Positions 7,345-28,585 are shown, numbered from the stretch's first letter. The stretch: DNA of 64,000 nucleotides from Rickettsiales bacterium (GCA_031256175.1 JAIRRC010000012.1:914-64913); one strand, 5' to 3'. Made by a program: numbers and translations. The notes: generated by a model not told the origin, from the letters alone.

Positions 7345-8887
7345 AAAATACGTGCTTATGGCATGTATTTTTTCGGCGGCGGCGCTTGGCGCCGCCTGCA
7401 ATAAAACGCAGTCCGCGAAAGTCGCGGCCGCGGTCGACGACGATTTCGTGAACGCCAGCATAGCGCTGGACAGCACGCGCCAGCCGCAAAGCCGCGTGAC
7501 TTCCGACACCATTTCGGCGTCTGATGGCGTATGGCTGGGCTCGCGCTCGACCGCGGTGCGGCGCGGTTTCGATTTGCCCGCGCGCTTCGAGACCGGAAAC
7601 GGAATCACCATCATCATGGACGAGCCCGCGACGCTTCAACAGCTTTCGAACAGCATATACGAGATAACCGGAATAAACGTATCGATAGACGGGCAGGTTT
7701 CTTCGGAAAAATTGGGCAAGACGATTTCGCTTAGCCATAGCGGAAAATTAAGCGACATGCTGACCCGCGTCGCGACCGATTTGGATTTGCTTTGGCAATA
7801 CGACAGGGAAGACATAGTTTTCTACGAGACCGAAACCAAGACTTACAATCTTTACGCTCTCGGCACCGACATCAGTTTTTCTTCGCGCATATCGACCGAC
7901 GATTCGAATCAGGTTTCGCTTGAATCCAACCTCCGCGAATGGGACGAGATAGAGCGCAGCATAACGGGAATCCTGGACGGCGTGCCGAATGCTAAATTTT
8001 CCGTGTCGCGTTCCTTGGGCACGATTACCCTTACCGCGGGCCCAAGCGTCCAGAAGCGCGTGGCTGGTTATATCTCACGCCAGAACCGCCGCCTGTCCCA
8101 GCAGATTTCGATAGACGTCAAGGTCTTGCAGGTTTCGATTACGAACACCAACGCGGTCGGCCTGAATCTTACCGCCGCGATTTCGAGCGTCGCCGGATTG
8201 CAAATAGCGTCCAACGCTTCGAACAATATCACGGGCGCGTCCGGCCTTAACGTCGCGGTCGCCGAAGGCGCCAGCGGCGCGCTTGCGCCTGCGGCGGGGT
8301 CGAGCGCGCTTATCCAGGCACTGGCGCGCCAGGGCAAGGTGTCGCTTATGACCAACGCTTCGGTCACGACGCGCAACAACCGCGTGGCGCCAGTCAGCAA
8401 CGTCCGCAACACCGGATACATCAAGCGCATAGAATCCCGCACCTTCACCGCGGTCGAAAGTTCGAGCGTCGAGCAGGACACGCTTGAAACCGGATTTTCC
8501 ATGCAGCTGCTTCCGAACATCTTGGACGGCGGCCGCGTTCTTCTGCTTTTCAAGATGTCGCTTCGCGAGCTTATCCGCATGAACACCGAAACCATCGGCG
8601 GCGACAATGGAATCACCATCCAGATGCCCGACGTCGAAGAGCGGTCCTTCATGCAGGAAGTGATTTTGGAAACGGGGCAGATGCTTGTTATCTCGGGCTT
8701 CGAGCGCCAGGCGAACGACGACACGCGCTACGGCGTGGGCGAGGCGGACTTCATGGCGCTTGGCGGCTCGCGCGAGTCGACGTCCCAGCGCGACGTGCTG
8801 GTCGTGATTCTGACGCCGCAGGTGCATGTTTCCCCGATGGATTCCGAAAGGGCGATTATGCGCGAGGTCGGGGCGCCGCTTAATTAA
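7334..8887 (+). CDS. Outer-membrane secretin lipoprotein of the type IVb / R64 PilN / TcpC / BfpB class
   Basis: Lipobox LGAAC after the signal peptide (start taken at MAIRKY; an alternative start lies 15 nt upstream at 7319). C-terminal secretin domain (LMTNASVTTRNNRVAPVSNV...GFSMQLLPNILDGGRVLL). About 520 aa. Confidence 0.75.
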   Translation: MAIRKYVLMACIFSAAALGAACNKTQSAKVAAAVDDDFVNASIALDSTRQPQSRVTSDTISASDGVWLGSRSTAVRRGFDLPARFETGNGITIIMDEPATLQQLSNSIYEITGINVSIDGQVSSEKLGKTISLSHSGKLSDMLTRVATDLDLLWQYDREDIVFYETETKTYNLYALGTDISFSSRISTDDSNQVSLESNLREWDEIERSITGILDGVPNAKFSVSRSLGTITLTAGPSVQKRVAGYISRQNRRLSQQISIDVKVLQVSITNTNAVGLNLTAAISSVAGLQIASNASNNITGASGLNVAVAEGASGALAPAAGSSALIQALARQGKVSLMTNASVTTRNNRVAPVSNVRNTGYIKRIESRTFTAVESSSVEQDTLETGFSMQLLPNILDGGRVLLLFKMSLRELIRMNTETIGGDNGITIQMPDVEERSFMQEVILETGQMLVISGFERQANDDTRYGVGEADFMALGGSRESTSQRDVLVVILTPQVHVSPMDSERAIMREVGAPLN

Positions 8888-19816: not shown

Positions 19817-21268
19817 ATGGAACTGACCGACCTTACCCTTTGCGAAATAATGTCCTGCCTGGACCAAAAGGAATTTTCAAGCGTCGAACTGACCAAGGCT
19901 TATTTGGCGCGCATGGAAAAATTCAGGAGCGAAATAAACTGCTATATAACGGAAACGCCCGAGCGCGCCCTGGCGGACGCGGCCGCAAGCGACGCGCGCC
20001 GCGCCAAGAACCGGGCGTTATTGCTGGACGGAATTCCGATAGGGATGAAGGACCTGTTCTGCACGAAGGGAATCCGCACGACGGCGGCCAGCCGCATGCT
20101 TGAAAACTTCGTCCCGCAATACGAAAGCACCGTATCGCAAAAATTGGCGGACGCGGGGATGGTGCTTCTCGGCAAGCTGAACATGGACGAATTCGCGATG
20201 GGCGGAACAAGCAAGACGTCCTTCTTCGGCGCGCCGGTCAATCCTTGGAAACGCGAACTTAGACTAACCGCGGGCGGAAGCAGCGGCGGGTCGAGCGCCG
20301 CTGTCGCGGCCGGACTATGCGCGGCGGCCACGGGCACGGACACGGGCGGAAGCATAAGGTTCCCGGCGGCTATAACCGGGCTGGTCGGGCACAAGCCGAC
20401 TTACGGATTATGCTCGCGCTTCGGCTGCATCGCGTTCGCTAGCTCGCTCGATACCCCGGGAACCATAACCCGCACCGCGTCCGACGCCGGGTTCATGCTT
20501 AACGAGATGTCCGGCTTCGACCCGTTTGAGGCGACTTCGGAATCGCGGAAAGTGTTTCCGGAAAAACCAATCAAGAATCTTAGAATCGGAATCATAAAGG
20601 AATTCGGCGATATAAAAATCTCGGCCGACATGAAGGCGCTTTTCGAAAGGCGCGTCGCGGAATTGAAATCGCTCGGCTGCGAGGTCGTCGAAGTGTCCGT
20701 CCCGCTCGCGCTCGAGGCGTTGGCGGCGTATTATATAGTCGCGCCGGCCGAGGCTTCGTCGAATTTGGCGCGCTATGACGGCGTGCGATACGGATTCCGC
20801 GCGGACGCGGACAATATAATCGACATGTATGAGAAGACGCGCGCGGAGGGTTTCGGCACGGAAGTGAAGCGCCGCATAATCGTCGGCACCGCGGTTCTGT
20901 CCAGCGAATCATACGAGAAATATTTCATGCAGGCCGCCCGCGTCCGGCGCCTGCTTTCCGATTCGATGGACGCGGCGTTCGAAAAATGCGATTTGATTCT
21001 GACGCCGGCTTCGGCCGACGCGGCGTTTCCGCTTTCGGAAGATTTGGCGCCCCTGTCCGCATACGCGCTCGATGTGTTCACGATTCTGGCGAATCTTACG
21101 GGAATGCCCGCGACAAGCGTTCCCGCCGGGCTGAACGCCGCCGGATTGCCGCTTGGGATACAGATAATCGGCAAACGATTCGACGATTGGAACTGCCTTA
21201 TGCTGGCGCGGGAAATCGAAAAAATCACGGGCTTTTCATTTAGGCCCGGCGAAATAACGGGGGCCTGA
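19817..21268 (+). CDS. gatA: Glu/Asp-tRNA amidotransferase subunit A (amidase)
   Basis: Amidase signature GGSSGGSSAAVAAG. 483 aa. Confidence 0.95.
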   Translation: MELTDLTLCEIMSCLDQKEFSSVELTKAYLARMEKFRSEINCYITETPERALADAAASDARRAKNRALLLDGIPIGMKDLFCTKGIRTTAASRMLENFVPQYESTVSQKLADAGMVLLGKLNMDEFAMGGTSKTSFFGAPVNPWKRELRLTAGGSSGGSSAAVAAGLCAAATGTDTGGSIRFPAAITGLVGHKPTYGLCSRFGCIAFASSLDTPGTITRTASDAGFMLNEMSGFDPFEATSESRKVFPEKPIKNLRIGIIKEFGDIKISADMKALFERRVAELKSLGCEVVEVSVPLALEALAAYYIVAPAEASSNLARYDGVRYGFRADADNIIDMYEKTRAEGFGTEVKRRIIVGTAVLSSESYEKYFMQAARVRRLLSDSMDAAFEKCDLILTPASADAAFPLSEDLAPLSAYALDVFTILANLTGMPATSVPAGLNAAGLPLGIQIIGKRFDDWNCLMLAREIEKITGFSFRPGEITGA

Positions 21269-21269
21269 C

Positions 21270-22697
21270 ATGTTCGCGATAAACGGATGGGAAATCGTAG
21301 TCGGGCTTGAAACGCATATGGAAGTCCTGTCGCATTCGAAGCTGTTTTCGGGCGCGTCGGCGGATTACAATCCGCAGATTCCGGCGAATACCCAGGTGTC
21401 GTTCATAGACGCCGCGATGCCCGGAATGCTTCCGGTGCCGAACAGGTTCTGCGTCATGCAGGCGATTAAAATGGGGCTTGGGATAAACGCCGAAATAAAC
21501 AAGAAATCGGTCTTCGCGCGCAAGCAGTATTTCTATCCCGACCTGCCCGCGGGCTACCAGATTTCGCAGACGATTCCGGTCGTGGGCAACGGCTATCTCG
21601 ACATCCTGGACGATGAAGGAAACACCAAAAGAATCAGAATCGAACGCATTCATCTGGAACAGGACGCGGGGAAAAACCTGCACGACAGGAATCCTTCGAA
21701 ATCGTTCGTGGACCTTAACCGCGCGGGCGTGGCGCTGATGGAAATCGTGTCGTTTCCCGACATAAGCTCGCCTGCCGAGGCGGCGAATTATCTGAAAGGA
21801 TTGCAGGCAATCGCGCGGGCCCTCGGGACTTCGAACGGCAATATGGACGAGGGAAGCATGCGCGCCGACGTCAATGTGTCCGTCAGAAAAATCGGCGAAA
21901 AGGAATTCCGCACAAGGTGCGAAATAAAAAACATGACCAGCTTCCGCTTCATACAAACGGCGATAGAATTCGAGGCGAAGCGCCAGATTGCAATTTATGA
22001 AGCGGGCGGTTCGGTTGACCAGGAAACCCGCCGGTTTTCCGCGGACACCGGCGAAACATCGACTTTGCGCAGCAAGGAAAACGCGCTGGATTACAGATAT
22101 TTTCCGGACCCGGATTTATTGCCCTTGATTATAACGGACGAAGAAATAGAAAGCGCGCGAAGGGATATGCCCGAACTTCCGGCCGAGAAAAAAGCGCGCT
22201 TCATCAAGGAATTTTCGCTGCCCGAATACGACGCGGAATTGCTTACCGAAAAGCCAGAAACTTCCGCATGGTTCGAAGCGGCGGTCGCGGGAAAAGCCGC
22301 GCGCGCGAAACCCGTCGCGAACTGGATGATTTCGGAACTCTTCGCCCACCCCGGGCATAATATAAAGCCCGAAGATTTGGCGCGGCTTGTCGATTTGATT
22401 TCAGACGGGACCATCAGCGGCAAAATCGCGAAGGACGTTTTCGCCATAATGCTTGAATCCGGCGGAAATCCGGCCCAAATCGTGGAATCGCGCGGCCTGG
22501 AACAGATGACCGACACGGGCGCCATAGAAAAAATAATCGATGAAGTAATCGCGGCGAATCCCGAACAAGCGGCGCTTTACAGGGGCGGCAAGACGGGCGT
22601 CATGGGCTGGCTTGTCGGACAAGTCATGAAACAGACCGGCGGGCGCGCGAATCCGGCGGCGCTTAACAAACTCATGGCGGAAAAACTGGCCTCATGA
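21270..22697 (+). CDS. gatB: Glu/Asp-tRNA amidotransferase subunit B
   Basis: 475 aa with a GatB/YqeY C-terminal domain. Confidence 0.95.
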   Translation: MFAINGWEIVVGLETHMEVLSHSKLFSGASADYNPQIPANTQVSFIDAAMPGMLPVPNRFCVMQAIKMGLGINAEINKKSVFARKQYFYPDLPAGYQISQTIPVVGNGYLDILDDEGNTKRIRIERIHLEQDAGKNLHDRNPSKSFVDLNRAGVALMEIVSFPDISSPAEAANYLKGLQAIARALGTSNGNMDEGSMRADVNVSVRKIGEKEFRTRCEIKNMTSFRFIQTAIEFEAKRQIAIYEAGGSVDQETRRFSADTGETSTLRSKENALDYRYFPDPDLLPLIITDEEIESARRDMPELPAEKKARFIKEFSLPEYDAELLTEKPETSAWFEAAVAGKAARAKPVANWMISELFAHPGHNIKPEDLARLVDLISDGTISGKIAKDVFAIMLESGGNPAQIVESRGLEQMTDTGAIEKIIDEVIAANPEQAALYRGGKTGVMGWLVGQVMKQTGGRANPAALNKLMAEKLAS

Positions 22698-23959
22698 AGT
22701 TTTTCATGCGAACCTTCGGCTGCCAGATGAACGTCTATGACGGCCAGAGAATCGCAAGCCTTCTCGAAAAATCAGGATACGCCGAAACATCCGAAATCCC
22801 GGAAGCCGACGTCATAATAATAAACACCTGCGCGGTGCGCGAAAAGGCGTCGGAAAAAATATTCTCGCTTTTGGGAAAAATTTCGAAAACGAAAAAGGCG
22901 GGCGCGCTGCTCGGCATAGTCGGCTGCGTCGCGCGGGCCGAGGGCGCAAACGCGTTCCGCCGCATAAAGGGCCTGAACTTCGCGCTCGGGCCGCAGTCGT
23001 ATCACAAGCTGCCCGAAGTATTGCGCGAATCGAAATATATGGACGTAGATTTGTCCGGCCTGGAAAAATTCGACGCGCTGCCGACGAACACGCGCAGCAC
23101 CGCAATCGCATACGTGCCCGTTCAGGAAGGCTGTTCGCATTGCTGCACCTATTGCATAGTGCCCTTCACGCGCGGGCCGGAAGTGTCGCGCGATATGGAT
23201 TCGGTCATGTTCGAGGCCCTCGCCGCCGCGGCGCGCGGCGCGGTCGAAATATGCTTCCTTGGCCAGAACGTGAACGGATACAAGCCGGGCTTGGCCGAAC
23301 TTATCCGCCGCGCGGCGAAGATAGAGGGGGTCCGGCGCATAAGATACACTTCGTCCTATCCGACCGAAATGACGGACGATTTAATCGCGCTTCACGGGAC
23401 GGAAGAAAAATTACTGCCCTTCGTGAATATGCCGCTTCAATCTGGTTCGCTCGAAATTCTGAAACGCATGAACCGGCCTTATGACATCGAACAATACCTC
23501 GGCGTTATGGAAAAGTTCAAAGCCGCGCGGCCGGACATAAAAATTTCAAGCGACTTCATAGTGGGATTTCCGGGCGAAACCGAAAAAGATTTCGAAATGA
23601 CGATGGAAATAGTGCGCCGGTGCGGCTTCATAAATTCCTATCCTTTCAAATATTCCCCGCGCCCGCGCACCGCCGCGGCCCTTATGGACGGCCAGGTCGC
23701 CGAAGACGTGAAATCGCGGCGCCTTGAAGAGCTGGACAATCTTCTTAATGAAAACAACCGGGAATTCAACGAAAGTCTGGTCGGGCGCACTTTGACGTGT
23801 CTGGTCGGCGAGGCGGGAAAAAAATCCGGCCAGGTTATAGCGCGCACGCCTTGGACGCAGCAGGTTGTCCTTGACGGCGCCGGCGCGCTCATGGGAAAAT
23901 TGGTCGACATCAAAATAACTTCCGGAAACAAAAGCAGTCTGCGGGGCGAAATCAAATGA
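22694..23959 (+). CDS. miaB: Radical-SAM methylthiotransferase of the MiaB/RimO family (MTTase, radical SAM and TRAM domains)
   Basis: N-terminal MTTase domain (FGCQMN), radical SAM motif CSHCCTYC, and a C-terminal TRAM region. Its position ahead of ybeY-lnt matches the conserved miaB neighbourhood. Confidence 0.65.
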   Translation: MKFFMRTFGCQMNVYDGQRIASLLEKSGYAETSEIPEADVIIINTCAVREKASEKIFSLLGKISKTKKAGALLGIVGCVARAEGANAFRRIKGLNFALGPQSYHKLPEVLRESKYMDVDLSGLEKFDALPTNTRSTAIAYVPVQEGCSHCCTYCIVPFTRGPEVSRDMDSVMFEALAAAARGAVEICFLGQNVNGYKPGLAELIRRAAKIEGVRRIRYTSSYPTEMTDDLIALHGTEEKLLPFVNMPLQSGSLEILKRMNRPYDIEQYLGVMEKFKAARPDIKISSDFIVGFPGETEKDFEMTMEIVRRCGFINSYPFKYSPRPRTAAALMDGQVAEDVKSRRLEELDNLLNENNREFNESLVGRTLTCLVGEAGKKSGQVIARTPWTQQVVLDGAGALMGKLVDIKITSGNKSSLRGEIK

Positions 23960-25746
23960 CGAAAGTTCTTGTTCAAATCCACGACAAAAGATGGAACGGC
24001 GTCAAGCTGGACTATGAAAAAATCATAAATTCCGCTTTGAAAAACAATGCCGAGGTTTCGGTTCTTCTTACGGACGACAAGGAAATCCGCGCGCTTAACA
24101 AGAAATACCGGAACATCGACAAGCCCACCAACGTCCTTTCGTTCGAAACCGGCGACCCCGAGATAATGGGCGACATAGTCCTGTCGTTCGACACGATTCT
24201 GCGCGAATCCGATGAAAAAAAATTCGCGGCGCACGCGACGCATATGCTTGTCCATGGCGCGCTACACTTGGCCGGATACGACCATATAAAGGATTCCGAC
24301 GCCATCATAATGGAATCGCGCGAGGCGAAAATTCTGCGGAAAATAAGATGGGGAAAATGGGTCCGGCGCGCGGCGCTTTTCGCGCTTGGCGGTTTGGCGA
24401 CACTCGGCTTCGCGCCGCATTATTTCTGGTTCATGACCATCTTCGCCATCGGCCTGGCGTATAAGACGGCGCGCGGATACAAGGACGGGTTCTTCTTCGG
24501 CGCGGGATACGCCGCGTTCGCCCTAAGCTGGATGATAAATTCATTCTTCGTGGACGAAGCGGCCGCCGCGATTTTCGGATTTTTGGCGCCGGTCGCCTTA
24601 ATCGGACTTGCAATCGGCGGCGGAATCATATTCGGCCTGCCATTCGCGCTTACGGCCGCGACAAAAGATTACAGCTGGCGAAGGCCGTTTTATTTCGCCG
24701 CGTTCTCTGCGCTCGTCCTTTGGCTGCGCGGCTGGCTTTTCAGCGGATTCCCATGGAATCCCCTTGCCGGAATATTGTTGGAATACGAATCCGCCGCGAA
24801 CATGACTGGCGTCATAGGGGTCGTCGGAACAAGTTTCTTAATCGCCGGAATTTCCGCCGCGATTTTTTCAAAAAAACTAATTCCGATTTTATTTTTCACC
24901 TTGATATTCGCGGCGCTTTCGGTCGTCGGATTCGGAAGGACGATGTCCTATATACCGCTGGCGCCGACCGGAAAGACGGCGCGAATTGTCCAGCCCGCCA
25001 TAGCGCAAGCCTTCAAATCCGACCGCGCAATGGCCGAAGAAAATTTGAAAATCGTCTTGAAATTATCCGACCTGCCGGGCGAATTCGACTTCATAGTATG
25101 GCCGGAAAGCGCGTATCCATATCTTGTGAACGAATTCCAGCGGCTGGATTTTTCCTTCGAAAAACCCCTTGTATTCGGCGGCCTGCGCCGCGGCGCGTCC
25201 GGCTATTACAATTCGATGTTCGTTTTGGAGAACGGAAAAATAACGGCCGTCTACGACAAGCGCCACCTGGTTCCGTTCGGCGAATACAGCCCGCTTGGAC
25301 CGCTTGTGCCGGTGCCCGGGACATTCATGTTCGGCGATGAAAACCAAGGCGCCATGGGCGGTTTCGCGCCGTCTATCTGCTACGAGATAATTTTCCCGGA
25401 TACGGCGGGCGCGGCCGCGGCGGACTTTATAATAAACATTACGAACGACGGATGGTTCGGCAAGTCCAAGGGGCCGCACCAGCACCTTGCGATGGCGCGG
25501 CTGCGCGCAATCGAATCGGGCCTTCCGGTAATCCGCGCGAATTATTCGGGCATATCGGCGGTCATCAATCCGCTGGGCGAAATAACGGCGCGGCTTCCGA
25601 TAGGCGAGCGCGGAATCATAGACGCGCCGGTGCCGCCAAAAATGGAATCAAGCGCGCCGTCGCCGAACGCCGCGATTATAACAATACTGCTTATGGCCGC
25701 CGCGATTCGTTTAACAAGAAGACGCGCAAAGCCGAAGAGAGATTAG
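23956..25746 (+). CDS. ybeY-lnt: In-frame fusion of endoribonuclease YbeY with apolipoprotein N-acyltransferase Lnt
   Basis: The N-terminal ~125 aa carry the YbeY Zn-site motif HGALHLAGYDH. They continue without a stop into multi-TM segments and a CN-hydrolase domain with the Lnt catalytic E/K/C (WPESAYP, YDKRHLVPFGEY, SICYEIIF). Confidence 0.8.
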   Translation: MTKVLVQIHDKRWNGVKLDYEKIINSALKNNAEVSVLLTDDKEIRALNKKYRNIDKPTNVLSFETGDPEIMGDIVLSFDTILRESDEKKFAAHATHMLVHGALHLAGYDHIKDSDAIIMESREAKILRKIRWGKWVRRAALFALGGLATLGFAPHYFWFMTIFAIGLAYKTARGYKDGFFFGAGYAAFALSWMINSFFVDEAAAAIFGFLAPVALIGLAIGGGIIFGLPFALTAATKDYSWRRPFYFAAFSALVLWLRGWLFSGFPWNPLAGILLEYESAANMTGVIGVVGTSFLIAGISAAIFSKKLIPILFFTLIFAALSVVGFGRTMSYIPLAPTGKTARIVQPAIAQAFKSDRAMAEENLKIVLKLSDLPGEFDFIVWPESAYPYLVNEFQRLDFSFEKPLVFGGLRRGASGYYNSMFVLENGKITAVYDKRHLVPFGEYSPLGPLVPVPGTFMFGDENQGAMGGFAPSICYEIIFPDTAGAAAADFIINITNDGWFGKSKGPHQHLAMARLRAIESGLPVIRANYSGISAVINPLGEITARLPIGERGIIDAPVPPKMESSAPSPNAAIITILLMAAAIRLTRRRAKPKRD

Positions 25747-25894
25747 TTTTCCTGCCTTCGTCGATACCGGCCACAAGCTTCGCGACGGAAATTTTCCTTT
25801 GCCCCGCGGCGGCGCGAAGGGCTTCCCAGAATTCGGGTTCAAGGCTGAATGAAGTCTGATGGCCTTTTATAGAGACCGAATATTTTTTCATCAC
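25691..25894 (-). CDS. Ribbon-helix-helix (Arc/MetJ-like) small DNA-binding protein
   Basis: YSVSIKGHQTSFSLEPEFWEALRAAAGQRKISVAKLVAGIDE matches the RHH beta-strand plus two-helix pattern. Last gene of the four-gene operon. Confidence 0.5.
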   Translation of the reverse strand: MMKKYSVSIKGHQTSFSLEPEFWEALRAAAGQRKISVAKLVAGIDEGRKTNLSSALRVFLLNESRRP

Positions 25895-26313
25895 ATCGCA
25901 CCGACAAGCAGGCAGTCGCGAATCGCGGCAAGCGCGTCGTCATAAGCTTTCACCGGCCGCATGGTGTAGAAATCGAGCAGCGAATATTTCAAGTCTTCGC
26001 CCACAACCAGCAGGAACAGGCCGTTGCGGCCGAATATGGTTTTCTTCGCAAGCTGTGGCGTGTTCGAAAAATCGCCGTTCGTCTCCATAAGCGTCCTGGC
26101 GCGCGTCTTGCCCACGGCCGCCGGAAGAAGGCCGAAAATTTCCGCGTCGCCCAAAACCATGCCGCCCGCATTCTCGTAGAATTCGACCAGGCCGCGCGGC
26201 ATCATGATTTTGCCGCTTGCCTGCAAGGCGGCCTGGGTCCGCACGATTTCGCCAGCCGCGCGCGGCAGGAAAACCGCGCCGTATTTTTTAAGCTCTGTCA
26301 GGAATTCGTTCAT
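25891..26313 (-). CDS. Hypothetical protein, possibly SMI1/KNR4 (SUKH)-like
   Basis: The motif MPRGLVEFYENAGG resembles the SUKH LPxxYxxFLxxxNGG signature. 140 aa. ATGA overlap with the downstream RHH gene. Confidence 0.3.
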   Translation of the reverse strand: MNEFLTELKKYGAVFLPRAAGEIVRTQAALQASGKIMMPRGLVEFYENAGGMVLGDAEIFGLLPAAVGKTRARTLMETNGDFSNTPQLAKKTIFGRNGLFLLVVGEDLKYSLLDFYTMRPVKAYDDALAAIRDCLLVGAM

Positions 26314-26317
26314 TCGA

Positions 26318-26836
26318 TTACTCCCTGCTTCCGCTTATCGCGCTCATGACGTCGCTTGCCAGGACGTCGGACATGCGGTCGCTTGTCGCGTTTCCGCCCG
26401 GCGAATTCATGGACGACATGGACGTTAGATAAATCGGTTTTTTCGGATTCGGATAGAAGAATTTTTCCGCGCCGGCCTGGGCCGCTATGAAAACGTCTAT
26501 TGCGCGGCCTTCGCTTGCGGCGCGGCAGACGAACATATTGTCCGGCGAAATCGCGCCGCCGAAAATCGGCGGAACGCGGAATTTCACGGAAACATTTGCC
26601 GGAATCCTTTCGCCTTTAAGCATGGCCATGATGTCGTCCATCGGCAGGTCCATCATCATAAGCTCGTCCCTGTAATCCTGGATGATATTCGTCAGAAGCG
26701 CGCGCCGCGCGGCGCGGTATGCCGCGAACCAGTCGCGCGGCAAGGGGCGCGGGCGGGCGTCGACATCCGCCACCGGCAAATCCGACAATCCCATCGAAGC
26801 CAAAATCCGTTCCGCGTCCGCCTGCGATTTCATCAT
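26318..26836 (-). CDS. Hypothetical protein (172 aa), no recognisable domain
   Basis: Start trimmed to MMKSQADAERIL, which overlaps (ATGA) the stop of the upstream membrane-protein gene. The upstream 48 codons of the tracked ORF lie inside that gene. Confidence 0.4.
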   Translation of the reverse strand: MMKSQADAERILASMGLSDLPVADVDARPRPLPRDWFAAYRAARRALLTNIIQDYRDELMMMDLPMDDIMAMLKGERIPANVSVKFRVPPIFGGAISPDNMFVCRAASEGRAIDVFIAAQAGAEKFFYPNPKKPIYLTSMSSMNSPGGNATSDRMSDVLASDVMSAISGSRE

Positions 26837-27834
26837 TTCTTGTCCCCGCCGTAATACCAAAGAATCGTGTCCATATATTCCACGAAGGATTCGTTCTTCG
26901 GAAGCTTTTCGATTTCGCGCGCGAAGGCTGTCAGCTCGGGCACGCCATGGTTCATGACCTTGACGCCGAGGGCCGCCCATATGCTGGAAAGCTTTTCGTA
27001 ATTTTCGATGTTGCCGTCGGCCATGACGACGAAGGGAACGATTTTTATCTGCATTCCGGCGTCGAGGGTTTCGGCGAACAGGGCTTGCAAAGCCTCGACC
27101 GCGGAATAGATTTCGGAAACCGGCGACTTGAATCCGCCGTCTATGTCGGAAGACCAGATATTCTTTCCGCCCTCGTGCGCCATGACGCGGCCGTGCGCGC
27201 CGCAGACTATTCCTATGTATAATTCCTCGCCATTCAGGGCCCAGACGTCGAGCTGAACGCCTTCGATTTTCGGCGCCTTGCCGATGGTGAATCCGGCGGA
27301 TTCCAGCTCGCGCAGGACTTCGGGCGCGGCGTTCGATTTTATTTCCTCGTCCGTGTTGGCGGGCGCCGGGGTGGGCGACAGGACAGGTTGATAAGTCGGA
27401 ACCGCGGGCGGCGTCGCCGGGCGATACATGGGCTGGGCAAGCGGCGCCATTCTGCGCGGCCTTTCCAAGGCGGTGGCGGCGGCCGAAATTTCCACCGGCT
27501 TTATGTCGAGCACGGGCGAAGCCGCGGGCGAAGCGACAAGCAACGGCATATAATTATCGGCGGGCGCATTCGCTTTCGCGAATCGAATCCGGCGGCGCGG
27601 GCGAACAAGCGCGAACCATACGACCGCTACGGAATAGACCGCGAAAAACAGCATCGCGATATAAAAGCCCCCGGCAATCGCCTGTCCGTCCAGCTGCATG
27701 TCCATGAAATACCGCCAGTGCGCGACCGACAGAATATTGAAGCCGAACGCAAGGTTCGCATAGGCGGAAAATCCCATGACGCCTATGGTCTGCAAAAATG
27801 CGAATTCGAGAAATTTCCGAAGGGATTTCATCAT
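26833..27834 (-). CDS. Membrane protein with a Pro/Ala-rich linker and a C-terminal domain showing weak NERD (PD-(D/E)xK-like) similarity
   Basis: Three predicted N-terminal TM helices. The C-terminal LDVWALNGEELYIGIVCG...NIWS...SPVSEIY...IKIVPFVVMAD follows the NERD pattern, but the catalytic E/K positions appear substituted. Confidence 0.45.
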   Translation of the reverse strand: MMKSLRKFLEFAFLQTIGVMGFSAYANLAFGFNILSVAHWRYFMDMQLDGQAIAGGFYIAMLFFAVYSVAVVWFALVRPRRRIRFAKANAPADNYMPLLVASPAASPVLDIKPVEISAAATALERPRRMAPLAQPMYRPATPPAVPTYQPVLSPTPAPANTDEEIKSNAAPEVLRELESAGFTIGKAPKIEGVQLDVWALNGEELYIGIVCGAHGRVMAHEGGKNIWSSDIDGGFKSPVSEIYSAVEALQALFAETLDAGMQIKIVPFVVMADGNIENYEKLSSIWAALGVKVMNHGVPELTAFAREIEKLPKNESFVEYMDTILWYYGGDKK

Positions 27835-27877
27835 AAAGCAATTATAGCAAAAACGCCCGCGATATGCTAGAATAAGT

Positions 27878-28585
27878 TTGATGGAACAAATGGACTTTCA
27901 AAGCACTTTGTCGGAAATAAGGCCGCACCTGGACCTTTGCTGCTGGAACGCGCCCGACGCATCGGCGCTGATACAGGCGGCGGCGCTGGCCGCGCAGTTC
28001 GAGTTGCGGCGCATTTCGGTCGACGCTTCGTCCGTCGCCAGCGTGTGGAGCTGGCTGGAAAAATCGCGCGTCGCGCTTTCGGCGATGGTCGCGTGGAATT
28101 CGGACAAGGCGGACGCGGCCGCATTGGCGCGCGATATAACGGCGCCATTGAAGCGCGGCGCGGACAGCGTGCAATTATTCGTCAGATGGAAGGATTTGCC
28201 GAAAGCGGCCGAGGCGCTCCGCGAAATAAAATCCGAAATTTTCTTCGACAAGAAATTGTCCGTCGCGCTATCCCTGGACGAAGCGCCATACGACGGCTGG
28301 CCGGCCGCGTTCGATTGCATGGACGATTTGGCCGCGGACAATATAATGCTTATCGCGAAGAATATAAAAACCGCGGGCCAGAAATATTACAGCTTTTTGG
28401 ACGCGCTGGACGCGCCGCGGAAATGGGGGATAGAGGTCTGCGTCGCGTCGGACGCGGTGAAGCCTTTGGAAGACCTTTACCGGCTTACGAACAAAATGCT
28501 TCCGGACGGGATGAATAATCTGCGCATGATAGTCCGGCCGGAATTCATGAAAAATTTTCAGGCGGTGGAACATGAGGATTTATAG
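27878..28585 (+). CDS. Hypothetical protein, possibly a DeoC-like TIM-barrel aldolase-family fold
   Basis: Weak pattern similarity to deoxyribose-phosphate aldolase (alternating beta/alpha segments; IAKNIKTAG near the expected Schiff-base Lys). Low confidence. Confidence 0.3.
   Translation: MMEQMDFQSTLSEIRPHLDLCCWNAPDASALIQAAALAAQFELRRISVDASSVASVWSWLEKSRVALSAMVAWNSDKADAAALARDITAPLKRGADSVQLFVRWKDLPKAAEALREIKSEIFFDKKLSVALSLDEAPYDGWPAAFDCMDDLAADNIMLIAKNIKTAGQKYYSFLDALDAPRKWGIEVCVASDAVKPLEDLYRLTNKMLPDGMNNLRMIVRPEFMKNFQAVEHEDL

Follow-up and report, generated by a model that had tools for sequence, protein, structure and literature searches.

A YbeY–Lnt gene fusion in a clade of uncultured Alphaproteobacteria and its probable origin in operon compaction

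When two genes that are commonly neighbours appear as one uninterrupted open reading frame (ORF), has a stop codon simply been lost, or does the cell make a single protein with two functions; and, if it does, do those functions have anything to do with each other? The question is raised by a 64,000-nucleotide stretch of DNA from a Rickettsiales bacterium (GCA_031256175.1 JAIRRC010000012.1:914-64913; ‘the window’ in what follows, meaning the whole stretch), in which ybeY, the gene for an rRNA maturation endoribonuclease, runs in frame into lnt, the gene for apolipoprotein N-acyltransferase. We are highly confident that the fusion itself is genuine, and put at roughly 70% the reading in which it reflects operon compaction in streamlined genomes and yields a membrane-anchored, bifunctional YbeY::Lnt without catalytic coupling between its halves.

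Two enzymes in one reading frame

An earlier, sequence-only reading of the window had described a single 596-codon ORF passing from YbeY into Lnt without interruption; our ORF list, Pfam and NCBIfam each bear this out. The parts of the fusion are listed below, the junction having been placed with the help of an alignment of 25 diverged fused proteins (alignment A1) and an AlphaFold2 model.

23956–25746, plus strand: complete ybeY::lnt fusion ORF, 596 amino acids (aa) plus stop (ATG at 23956, TAG at 25744–25746)
23956–24348, plus strand: YbeY endoribonuclease domain, aa 1–131, predicted to be cytoplasmic (PF02130, TIGR00043, matches to YbeY structures)
24253–24285, plus strand: YbeY zinc-binding motif H100-x3-H104-x5-H110 (HGALHLAGYDH, aa 100–110; codons verified)
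24343–24375, plus strand: junction, IRWGKWVRRAA, aa 130–140 (alignment A1, AlphaFold2 model)
24376–24960, plus strand: Lnt transmembrane domain (LNT_N), aa 141–335, from the first transmembrane helix (TM1) onwards (PF20154), with W267 at 24754–56
24961–25650, plus strand: Lnt nitrilase-like (CN-hydrolase) catalytic domain, periplasmic by homology (PF00795)
25105–07, 25258–60 and 25378–80, plus strand: codons of the Lnt triad, E384, K435 and C475 respectively (verified)
25651–25746, plus strand: final Lnt transmembrane helix and basic C-terminal tail, aa 566–596, with the stop codon (helix 570–595 in the model)

Pfam recognises YbeY (PF02130) at aa 21–129 (E = 1.2e-32; 113 bits against a cut-off of 25; positions 12–128 of a profile of 129), LNT_N (PF20154) at aa 145–301 and CN_hydrolase (PF00795) at aa 404–563. 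The equivalog models of NCBIfam agree, YbeY (TIGR00043) scoring 118 bits against a cut-off of 45 and lnt (TIGR00546) 233.7 bits against 132.9, the latter along its entire profile (1–395 of 395). By sequence comparison, the YbeY half also matches the solved YbeY structures 1xm5, 1xax, 1oz9, 1tvi and 7y7o (E from 2.3e-10 to 6.7e-20), the best matches being 1xm5, 1xax and 1oz9 (E of about 1e-19); both the zinc-binding H-x3-H-x5-H motif and the conserved arginine R52 (R59 in E. coli) are present. On the Lnt side, E384, K435 and C475 align with E267, K335 and C387 of the crystallised E. coli enzyme, so that the earlier statement that the catalytic E/K/C residues are intact holds down to the individual codons. 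The alignment with the Lnt proteins of E. coli and P. aeruginosa begins at about residue 17–36 of their chains (depending on the construct), which is to say at their TM1, and seven of the last 12 residues in the C-terminal tail of the fusion are lysine or arginine.

The AlphaFold2 model, built on A1, has a mean predicted local distance difference test score (pLDDT) of 86.1 and a predicted template modelling score (pTM) of 0.81, with the block corresponding to YbeY lying mostly at pLDDT 80–90. Foldseek matches its Lnt part to Lnt structures from both E. coli and P. aeruginosa (TM-score 0.73–0.81 over about 500 aligned columns); the Foldseek list is filled by Lnt and nitrilase-family matches, and the YbeY fold rests on the sequence matches to solved structures given above. 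By every sequence and structural criterion that we applied for the two enzymes, one half of the protein is a YbeY and the other an Lnt.

Across A1, the invariant residues of YbeY include R52, the PTNVLSFE block, H100, H104, H110, M119, E120 and E123, and those of Lnt include W267, E384, K435, E443, C475, Y476 and E477. We take these seven Lnt residues to correspond to the seven that are essential in E. coli Lnt, W237, E343, Y388 and E389 among them. The list of essential residues in the E. coli enzyme is, reportedly, that of Vidal-Ingigliardi et al. 2007. Mean pairwise identity within the fused clade is 56.6% for YbeY, 44.3% for the membrane part of Lnt, 49.8% for its nitrilase-like domain and 37.9% for the junction. 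With its catalytic residues invariant and its sequence the best conserved region of the protein, the YbeY domain is therefore no decaying remnant. Judged by this pattern of conservation, both halves are under selection, and both activities have very probably been retained.

It is very improbable, then, that the YbeY-like domain is a catalytically dead relic which caps or stabilises Lnt while a separate gene supplies YbeY. Such a proposal could draw on the absence, in the window's sub-lineage, of the last ~12 residues of canonical YbeY, and on the span of our search for a second copy: scans with hidden Markov models (HMMs) and of six-frame ORFs found no second YbeY or Lnt in the window, this search for further ybeY or lnt genes of the host having covered 64 kb of its genome. 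It would have to accommodate the invariance of the zinc-binding histidines, of R52 and of PTNVLSFE within what is the most conserved segment of the protein, and a score well above the YbeY equivalog cut-off; to our knowledge, YbeY is moreover close to universal and normally single-copy in bacteria, which also counts against a dead domain.

Recurrence, neighbourhood and route of origin

The architecture is not peculiar to the window. PF02130, PF20154 and PF00795 are present together in all of the 120 best-matching clusters (made at 90% identity), whose lengths run from 596 to 719 aa and which are between 37% and 100% identical to the query. At the level of DNA, all six-frame ORFs of 82 loci and of the window were scanned with separate HMMs for the YbeY and Lnt halves: the fusion is one stop-free ORF in the window, in the window's own contig as found in the Logan assembly (L001) and in five other genomes (L002–L006). 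The latter are labelled ‘Rickettsiales bacterium’ or ‘Alphaproteobacteria bacterium’, three of them deriving from roe-deer, water-buffalo-rumen and rumen (RUG) samples, and have a GC content of 36% to 49%, against 55% in the window. The identical protein (P0001) is public as MDR0449034.1, under the title ‘MAG: apolipoprotein N-acyltransferase [Rickettsiales bacterium]’ (MAG, metagenome-assembled genome), and is found again in the Logan assembly of run SRR14710886; both assemblies may share reads.

When 1.84 billion representatives at 50% identity were searched with HMMER, some 8–12 fused representatives stood at the top of the matches listed (P0004, P0121, P0034, P0069, P0122, P0123, P0127 and P0131, plus fragments); 1794 proteins in this set reach E ≤ 1e-30, and the other matches listed are nearly all Lnt-only proteins of roughly 330–580 aa. 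Fused representatives being so few among the 1794, the fusion is confined to one lineage; of that lineage, metagenomes provide a good sample, ENA and Logan contributing many members. One of its members is Candidatus Enterousia onthequi; Candidatus Enterousia belongs to the GTDB order Rs-D84, an order of animal-gut bacteria with genomes under 1 Mb (PMC12306168). The organism of the window is a more distant member of the clade, with a higher GC content. A neighbour-joining tree built from the Lnt domain only (106 sequences, 483 columns) gathers all fused proteins into one clade, inside which the window's protein groups with P0002 and P0003. In our reading of this tree, the two genes fused once, long ago, and the fusion has since been retained by a clade of uncultured Alphaproteobacteria, largely from gut or rumen.

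A search whose query was limited to the 130-aa YbeY domain failed to bring up any full-length fused protein, even the 100% identical one from which the query came. Several of its best stand-alone matches are contig-end fragments of fused genes that end in a Cys-rich linker (see below), others look truncated or frameshifted, and the first clearly canonical stand-alone YbeYs appear at 46–48% identity. Domain-only queries in that index can miss fusions.

The sequence-only reading had left undecided whether the ORF was a genuine fusion or a lost stop codon. With at least 120 clusters sharing the architecture, an intact ORF in five other genomes and invariant catalytic residues, it is a genuine fusion rather than a sequencing error; as to the stop codon, a recent or artefactual loss is incompatible with a clade-wide fusion, whereas an ancient loss in the ancestor of the clade is probable. 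That the ORF was created by an error of sequencing or assembly, or because this one genome lost its ybeY stop very recently, is vanishingly improbable. There are indeed loci (L007 and L073, see below) in which one in-frame stop keeps abutting ybeY and lnt genes apart, and a low-coverage contig of 1.3 kb (L084, ENA ERZ27257348, positions 493–1340), from a member of the fused clade, has its YbeY and Lnt in different frames owing to a single frameshift in the linker, showing that errors do occur in the junction region; given the short contig, this frameshift may be an assembly error, or it could be a real disrupted copy. An artefact would nevertheless have to have produced the same architecture throughout the best 120 clusters, down to 37% identity, intact ORFs in five other genomes and the same ORF in two assemblies of this organism, and to have done so within a single clade of sequences; the junction in the window is, besides, a deletion-type join, which P0002 and P0003 also have, rather than a stop codon altered by a point mutation. 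We rejected sequencing error and a private stop loss on the grounds of this wide recurrence and of the single fused clade.

Around the fusion, the window carries the following genes.

22694–23959, plus strand: miaB, directly upstream, overlapping the ATG of the fusion by 4 nucleotides (nt; ATGA) (Pfam UPF0004, Radical_SAM and TRAM)
25691–25894, minus strand: RHH_4 gene, convergent, sharing 56 nt with the 3′ end of the fusion (PF13467, E = 1.1e-21)
25891–26313, minus strand: orf140, no Pfam or NCBIfam match
26318–26836, minus strand: orf172, no Pfam or NCBIfam match
26833–27834, minus strand: orf333, no Pfam or NCBIfam match
27878–28585, plus strand: orf235, no Pfam or NCBIfam match

From 19817 to 25746, the starts and stops of gatA, gatB, miaB and ybeY::lnt touch or overlap (TGACATG, ATGA and ATGA in turn), which suggests that, in a compact genome, these genes are transcribed as one unit and coupled in translation. 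The Logan gene calls place a gatC ORF before gatA. The order gatA-gatB-miaB-ybeY::lnt is found in the window and in L004 and miaB-ybeY::lnt in L003; L002, L005 and L006 have a rearranged upstream region without miaB. Downstream, a five-gene block (25691–28585) adjoins the fusion and was encountered, among the fetched loci, in the fused clade only: the RHH_4 block lies in the same place downstream of the fusion in L002, L005 and L006, and in L003 part of it (orf172, orf140 and the RHH_4 gene) lies about 7 kb upstream. The RHH_4 gene accompanies the fusion in the fused clade as a marker of context, and is no functional part of it. The earlier reading was right, for the window, to describe a neighbourhood of miaB followed by ybeY::lnt that lacks phoH and corC (Pfam, phmmer): phmmer detects no homologue of PhoH or CorC anywhere in its 64 kb at E ≤ 1e-3, nor are there any in L002–L006 within the DNA covered. 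The only tRNAs in the window are four in number, none of them near the fusion (Rfam and tRNA scans).

How such a locus might have come about can be followed in the loci that are not fused. Both phoH and corC are present in 58 of the 83 sequences (the 82 loci and the window), and the full order miaB-phoH-ybeY-corC-lnt is seen in Bradyrhizobium (L014), where Pfam confirms PhoH as well as CBS and CorC_HlyC. A state lacking corC, in which miaB-phoH-ybeY abuts lnt, occurs in three alphaproteobacterial MAG loci (L007, L008 and L026). At positions 8400–8600 of L007, ybeY ends in ...NPYQE and TAA, 3 nt before an lnt ATG in the same frame; ybeY and lnt overlap out of frame in L008 and L026; and in L073, a deltaproteobacterial contig, the ybeY TAA is followed after 9 nt by lnt in the same frame (positions 200–400). 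One substitution would fuse the two genes in L007 or in L073. Because these two loci are not closely related to each other in the Lnt tree, where the abutting loci lie scattered among unfused lineages, the in-frame abutting state arose independently in each, and adjacency without corC, which the tree indicates to have arisen repeatedly, is an obvious stepping stone, with one stop codon left to lose. L007 (CAVBCV010000004.1) is titled ‘Lachnospiraceae bacterium’, yet has a miaB-phoH-ybeY-lnt order of proteobacterial type and an Lnt that groups with those of alphaproteobacterial MAGs; its Firmicutes label is apparently mistaken, through an error of binning or of taxonomy.

The ancestral string miaB-phoH-ybeY-corC-lnt would, on this route, have lost corC, so bringing ybeY up against lnt; the stop codon of ybeY would then have been lost and phoH also removed from the locus, leaving miaB-ybeY::lnt; and in the sub-lineage of the window the C-terminal tail of YbeY and the linker would have been deleted in a further step.

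The junction and the number of products

The junction exists, but at about 24343–24375 (aa 130–140), slightly downstream of the 24300–24330 quoted in the earlier reading. Most fused relatives keep the canonical C-terminus of YbeY, ‘...KILKKLGIKNPY’ (the LGIKNPY tail), after which there is a poorly conserved linker of roughly 10–40 residues and then TM1 of Lnt (‘...LGA.A..GFAP’). Within A1, tail and linker are deleted in the window's protein, in P0002 (74% identity) and in P0003 (66%) only, the join in the window reading ...MESREAKILRKI-RWGKWVRR-AALFALGGLATLGFAP. In the model, a single continuous helix (residues 113–151) leads from the last helix of YbeY into TM1.

Solved E. coli Lnt has eight transmembrane helices, and in published structures the N-terminus of Lnt is cytoplasmic; because of this, YbeY would be placed on the cytoplasmic side of the membrane, the side on which its RNA substrates occur. 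Lysine and arginine abound at the junction, as fits this topology, and YbeY is probably membrane-anchored in the fused clade.

In one subclade of the fusions, the stretch of cytoplasmic linker that directly precedes TM1 contains a conserved Cys-rich motif, C-x-x-[AS]-x-CCPG[GS]. It is carried by P0026, P0049, P0119, P0120 and L005 (aa ~160–175) and by the fragments P0291, P0293, P0296 and P0297, and is not in the window's protein; it could be a metal-binding or lipidation-type site.

A real fused ORF could still give rise to two separate proteins, through internal initiation near the junction or proteolysis of the linker, in which case YbeY would be soluble. The sequence-only reading had suggested that Lnt might start internally at MESREAKIL, a suggestion that does not survive: the methionine concerned, M119, is inside the YbeY core and has no sequence resembling a Shine–Dalgarno (SD) site 4–11 nt upstream. 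MESREAKIL is not the N-terminus of a separate Lnt because M119, E120 and E123 are invariant YbeY residues, the region around M119 matching a helix, ‘...EMEALE...’, that is conserved in stand-alone YbeY. M119 apart, the window has no in-frame ATG, GTG or TTG from the YbeY core to TM1, and no promoter-like site on the plus strand inside the junction; across the six fused DNA loci, no combination of start codon and SD sequence is conserved. A separate Lnt product from the window was rejected on these three counts, namely a core methionine without SD sequence, the lack of any other start and the lack of a promoter-like site.

Overall, production of two proteins is unlikely. It is favoured by the ‘LGIKNPY’ end of YbeY that most relatives keep and by the variable linker of 10–40 residues that follows it, which might be cleaved, and by L002, the only locus in which GAGG stands 5 nt before an ATG, at a linker methionine (MLKSKK). 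This arrangement resembles the true lnt start of the unfused L007 (MLVKLK), and the linker methionine is probably a relic of the old lnt start, to go by that resemblance. It is disfavoured by the deletion of the linker in the window and the continuous helix that the model draws from YbeY to TM1, by the invariance of the sole in-frame start before TM1 and the absence of conserved initiation and promoter-like signals just described, and by the consideration that a stop codon would easily be regained if it were needed, yet at least 120 clusters keep the frame open. Cleavage or internal initiation is possible in the relatives with longer linkers.

Compaction, coupling and known systems

The favoured reading, operon compaction, begins from topology. 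With the active sites on opposite sides of the bilayer, no substrate would be passed or channelled from one to the other, and as neither the length nor the sequence of the linker is conserved, no fixed geometry would hold between the domains. In the absence of any passing of substrate, the fusion is best read as operon compaction, and the tight packing of neighbouring genes, whose stop and start codons touch or overlap, speaks for the same reading. The product would be one bifunctional protein of the inner membrane, in which the periplasmic nitrilase-like domain carries out the normal N-acylation of lipoproteins by Lnt and the cytoplasmic YbeY domain serves as a membrane-anchored RNase, acting in late 16S rRNA 3′-end maturation and in ribosome quality control at the membrane. 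YbeY would be made 1:1 with Lnt, anchoring and co-expression being tolerated or mildly useful side effects. That both activities persist, that the topology is as drawn, that the domains are not coupled and that the fused gene is the cell's only YbeY are matters that we infer; a bearing on rRNA maturation at the membrane, which the earlier reading had anticipated, would fit this topology.

Several points weigh against this reading or the history attached to it. The neighbour-joining tree carries no bootstrap support. Nor are the abutting loci sister to the fused clade; they show a route rather than the actual ancestor. In a contig of 2.2 kb (L083, JGI 3300042593, positions 1386–1805), miaB is followed by a stand-alone ybeY of 139 aa that stops after ...NPYRDS; the product is 63% identical to the YbeY domain of the fused P0015, and no Lnt-coding sequence comes after it. 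This may be a secondary fission or a loss of lnt in a close relative, or else a chimeric contig, and the fusion is therefore perhaps not universal, or not irreversible, in the group. Finally, the deep linkage of ybeY and lnt across Proteobacteria, here culminating in a fusion, could mean that there is a real functional link.

Such a link is the substance of a ‘Rosetta stone’ interpretation, in which YbeY and Lnt act together, for example with the activity or localisation of YbeY tied to lipoprotein maturation or to the state of the envelope. The two genes do belong to one conserved string in E. coli, Salmonella and most of the alphaproteobacterial loci examined, direct adjacency without corC arose several times, and the fusion, its YbeY domain highly conserved, persists across a deep clade. 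Set against this are the position of the active sites on opposite sides of the membrane, a linker that varies from about 0 to 40 residues at 38% identity and so imposes no fixed geometry, and the frequency with which adjacent genes fuse neutrally in compact genomes; fused representatives number just ~8–12 among the matches listed at 50% identity, compared with 1794 proteins, mostly stand-alone Lnt, at E ≤ 1e-30, and no report of a YbeY–Lnt interaction was found in the literature searched. On balance we think it not likely that the two halves cooperate. It is also doubtful that YbeY normally resides at the inner membrane beside Lnt, linking late 30S maturation and quality control (or the processing of particular mRNAs or small RNAs) to envelope biogenesis; if true, a YbeY at the side of Lnt would explain the long-unexplained ybeY-(corC)-lnt linkage across Proteobacteria.

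The compaction reading can be set beside systems already known. In E. coli and Salmonella, the genes form the operon ybeZ(phoH)-ybeY-ybeX(corC)-lnt (bioRxiv 10.1101/2023.03.20.533420; PMC12421838). The fusion shares with this operon, and with the alphaproteobacterial string, the same two enzymes in the same order, downstream of miaB and with conserved catalytic residues; it differs in that ybeY and lnt are one ORF, in that neither the locus nor the 64 kb of the window contains phoH or corC, and in that YbeY, soluble in the operon, would be membrane-anchored. The window lies outside the canonical phoH-ybeY-corC-lnt operon as defined. It lies inside the YbeY::Lnt family, which we define here by a YbeY N-terminal to Lnt in one ORF, membership of one Lnt-domain clade and, usually, miaB upstream and/or an RHH_4 cluster downstream: the window has the single ORF, belongs to the one Lnt clade and has both miaB upstream and the RHH_4 cluster downstream.

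Lnt is known from another fusion. Ppm1 of M. tuberculosis (Rv2051c) was, reportedly by Gurcha et al. 2002, described as an Lnt-like domain fused to polyprenol-monophosphomannose synthase, the two being encoded by separate adjacent genes in M. smegmatis. As in the present case, Lnt is fused to the product of its neighbour in some lineages and separate in others; unlike the present case, the partner in Ppm1 is a lipid-linked glycosyltransferase with membrane substrates, attached at the other end of Lnt, whereas here it is an N-terminal RNA-processing nuclease with no obvious shared substrate. Two further Lnt homologues among our matches, P0171 (816 aa) and P0223 (718 aa), have long C-terminal extensions after a complete Lnt, and may represent other Lnt fusion architectures, e.g. 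that of the mycobacterial Ppm1.

Anchored nucleases and extended YbeYs have precedents too. RNase Y has an N-terminal transmembrane helix and RNase E an amphipathic membrane-targeting helix; the fusion would resemble both in holding an RNA nuclease at the cytoplasmic face of the inner membrane, and differs in that the anchor is no dedicated device but a complete, apparently active, multi-helix membrane enzyme. Chloroplast AtYbeY of Arabidopsis has an added C-terminal HAD-like domain and keeps its function in rRNA maturation, so the YbeY core tolerates domain fusion there, as it would here; the extra domain of AtYbeY, unlike Lnt, is soluble, and belongs to a eukaryotic organelle lineage.

Full-text literature searching found no published description of a YbeY–Lnt fusion, nor was a membrane-bound YbeY described in the literature searched. 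The names seen in NCBI and JGI are always just ‘apolipoprotein N-acyltransferase’, although precomputed Pfam annotations do show the three domains. The architecture is a new variant of two well-known enzymes, under-annotated in the databases; it offers no positive sign of a new mechanism. Under product names that mention Lnt alone, name-based inventories of reduced gut Alphaproteobacteria would score the near-universal YbeY as missing.

As to why the linkage of ybeY and lnt persists, the fusion adds some, albeit not decisive, evidence. It does provide a clean example of fusion by operon compaction, in which the ancestral, abutting and fused states can all be compared. PhoH (YbeZ) and CorC (YbeX) are currently discussed as co-workers of YbeY in ribosome metabolism, and the clade amounts to a natural experiment on that partnership: with a YbeY that is apparently permanently anchored and has neither PhoH nor CorC next to it, it asks whether YbeY must be soluble, and whether it needs these two partners.

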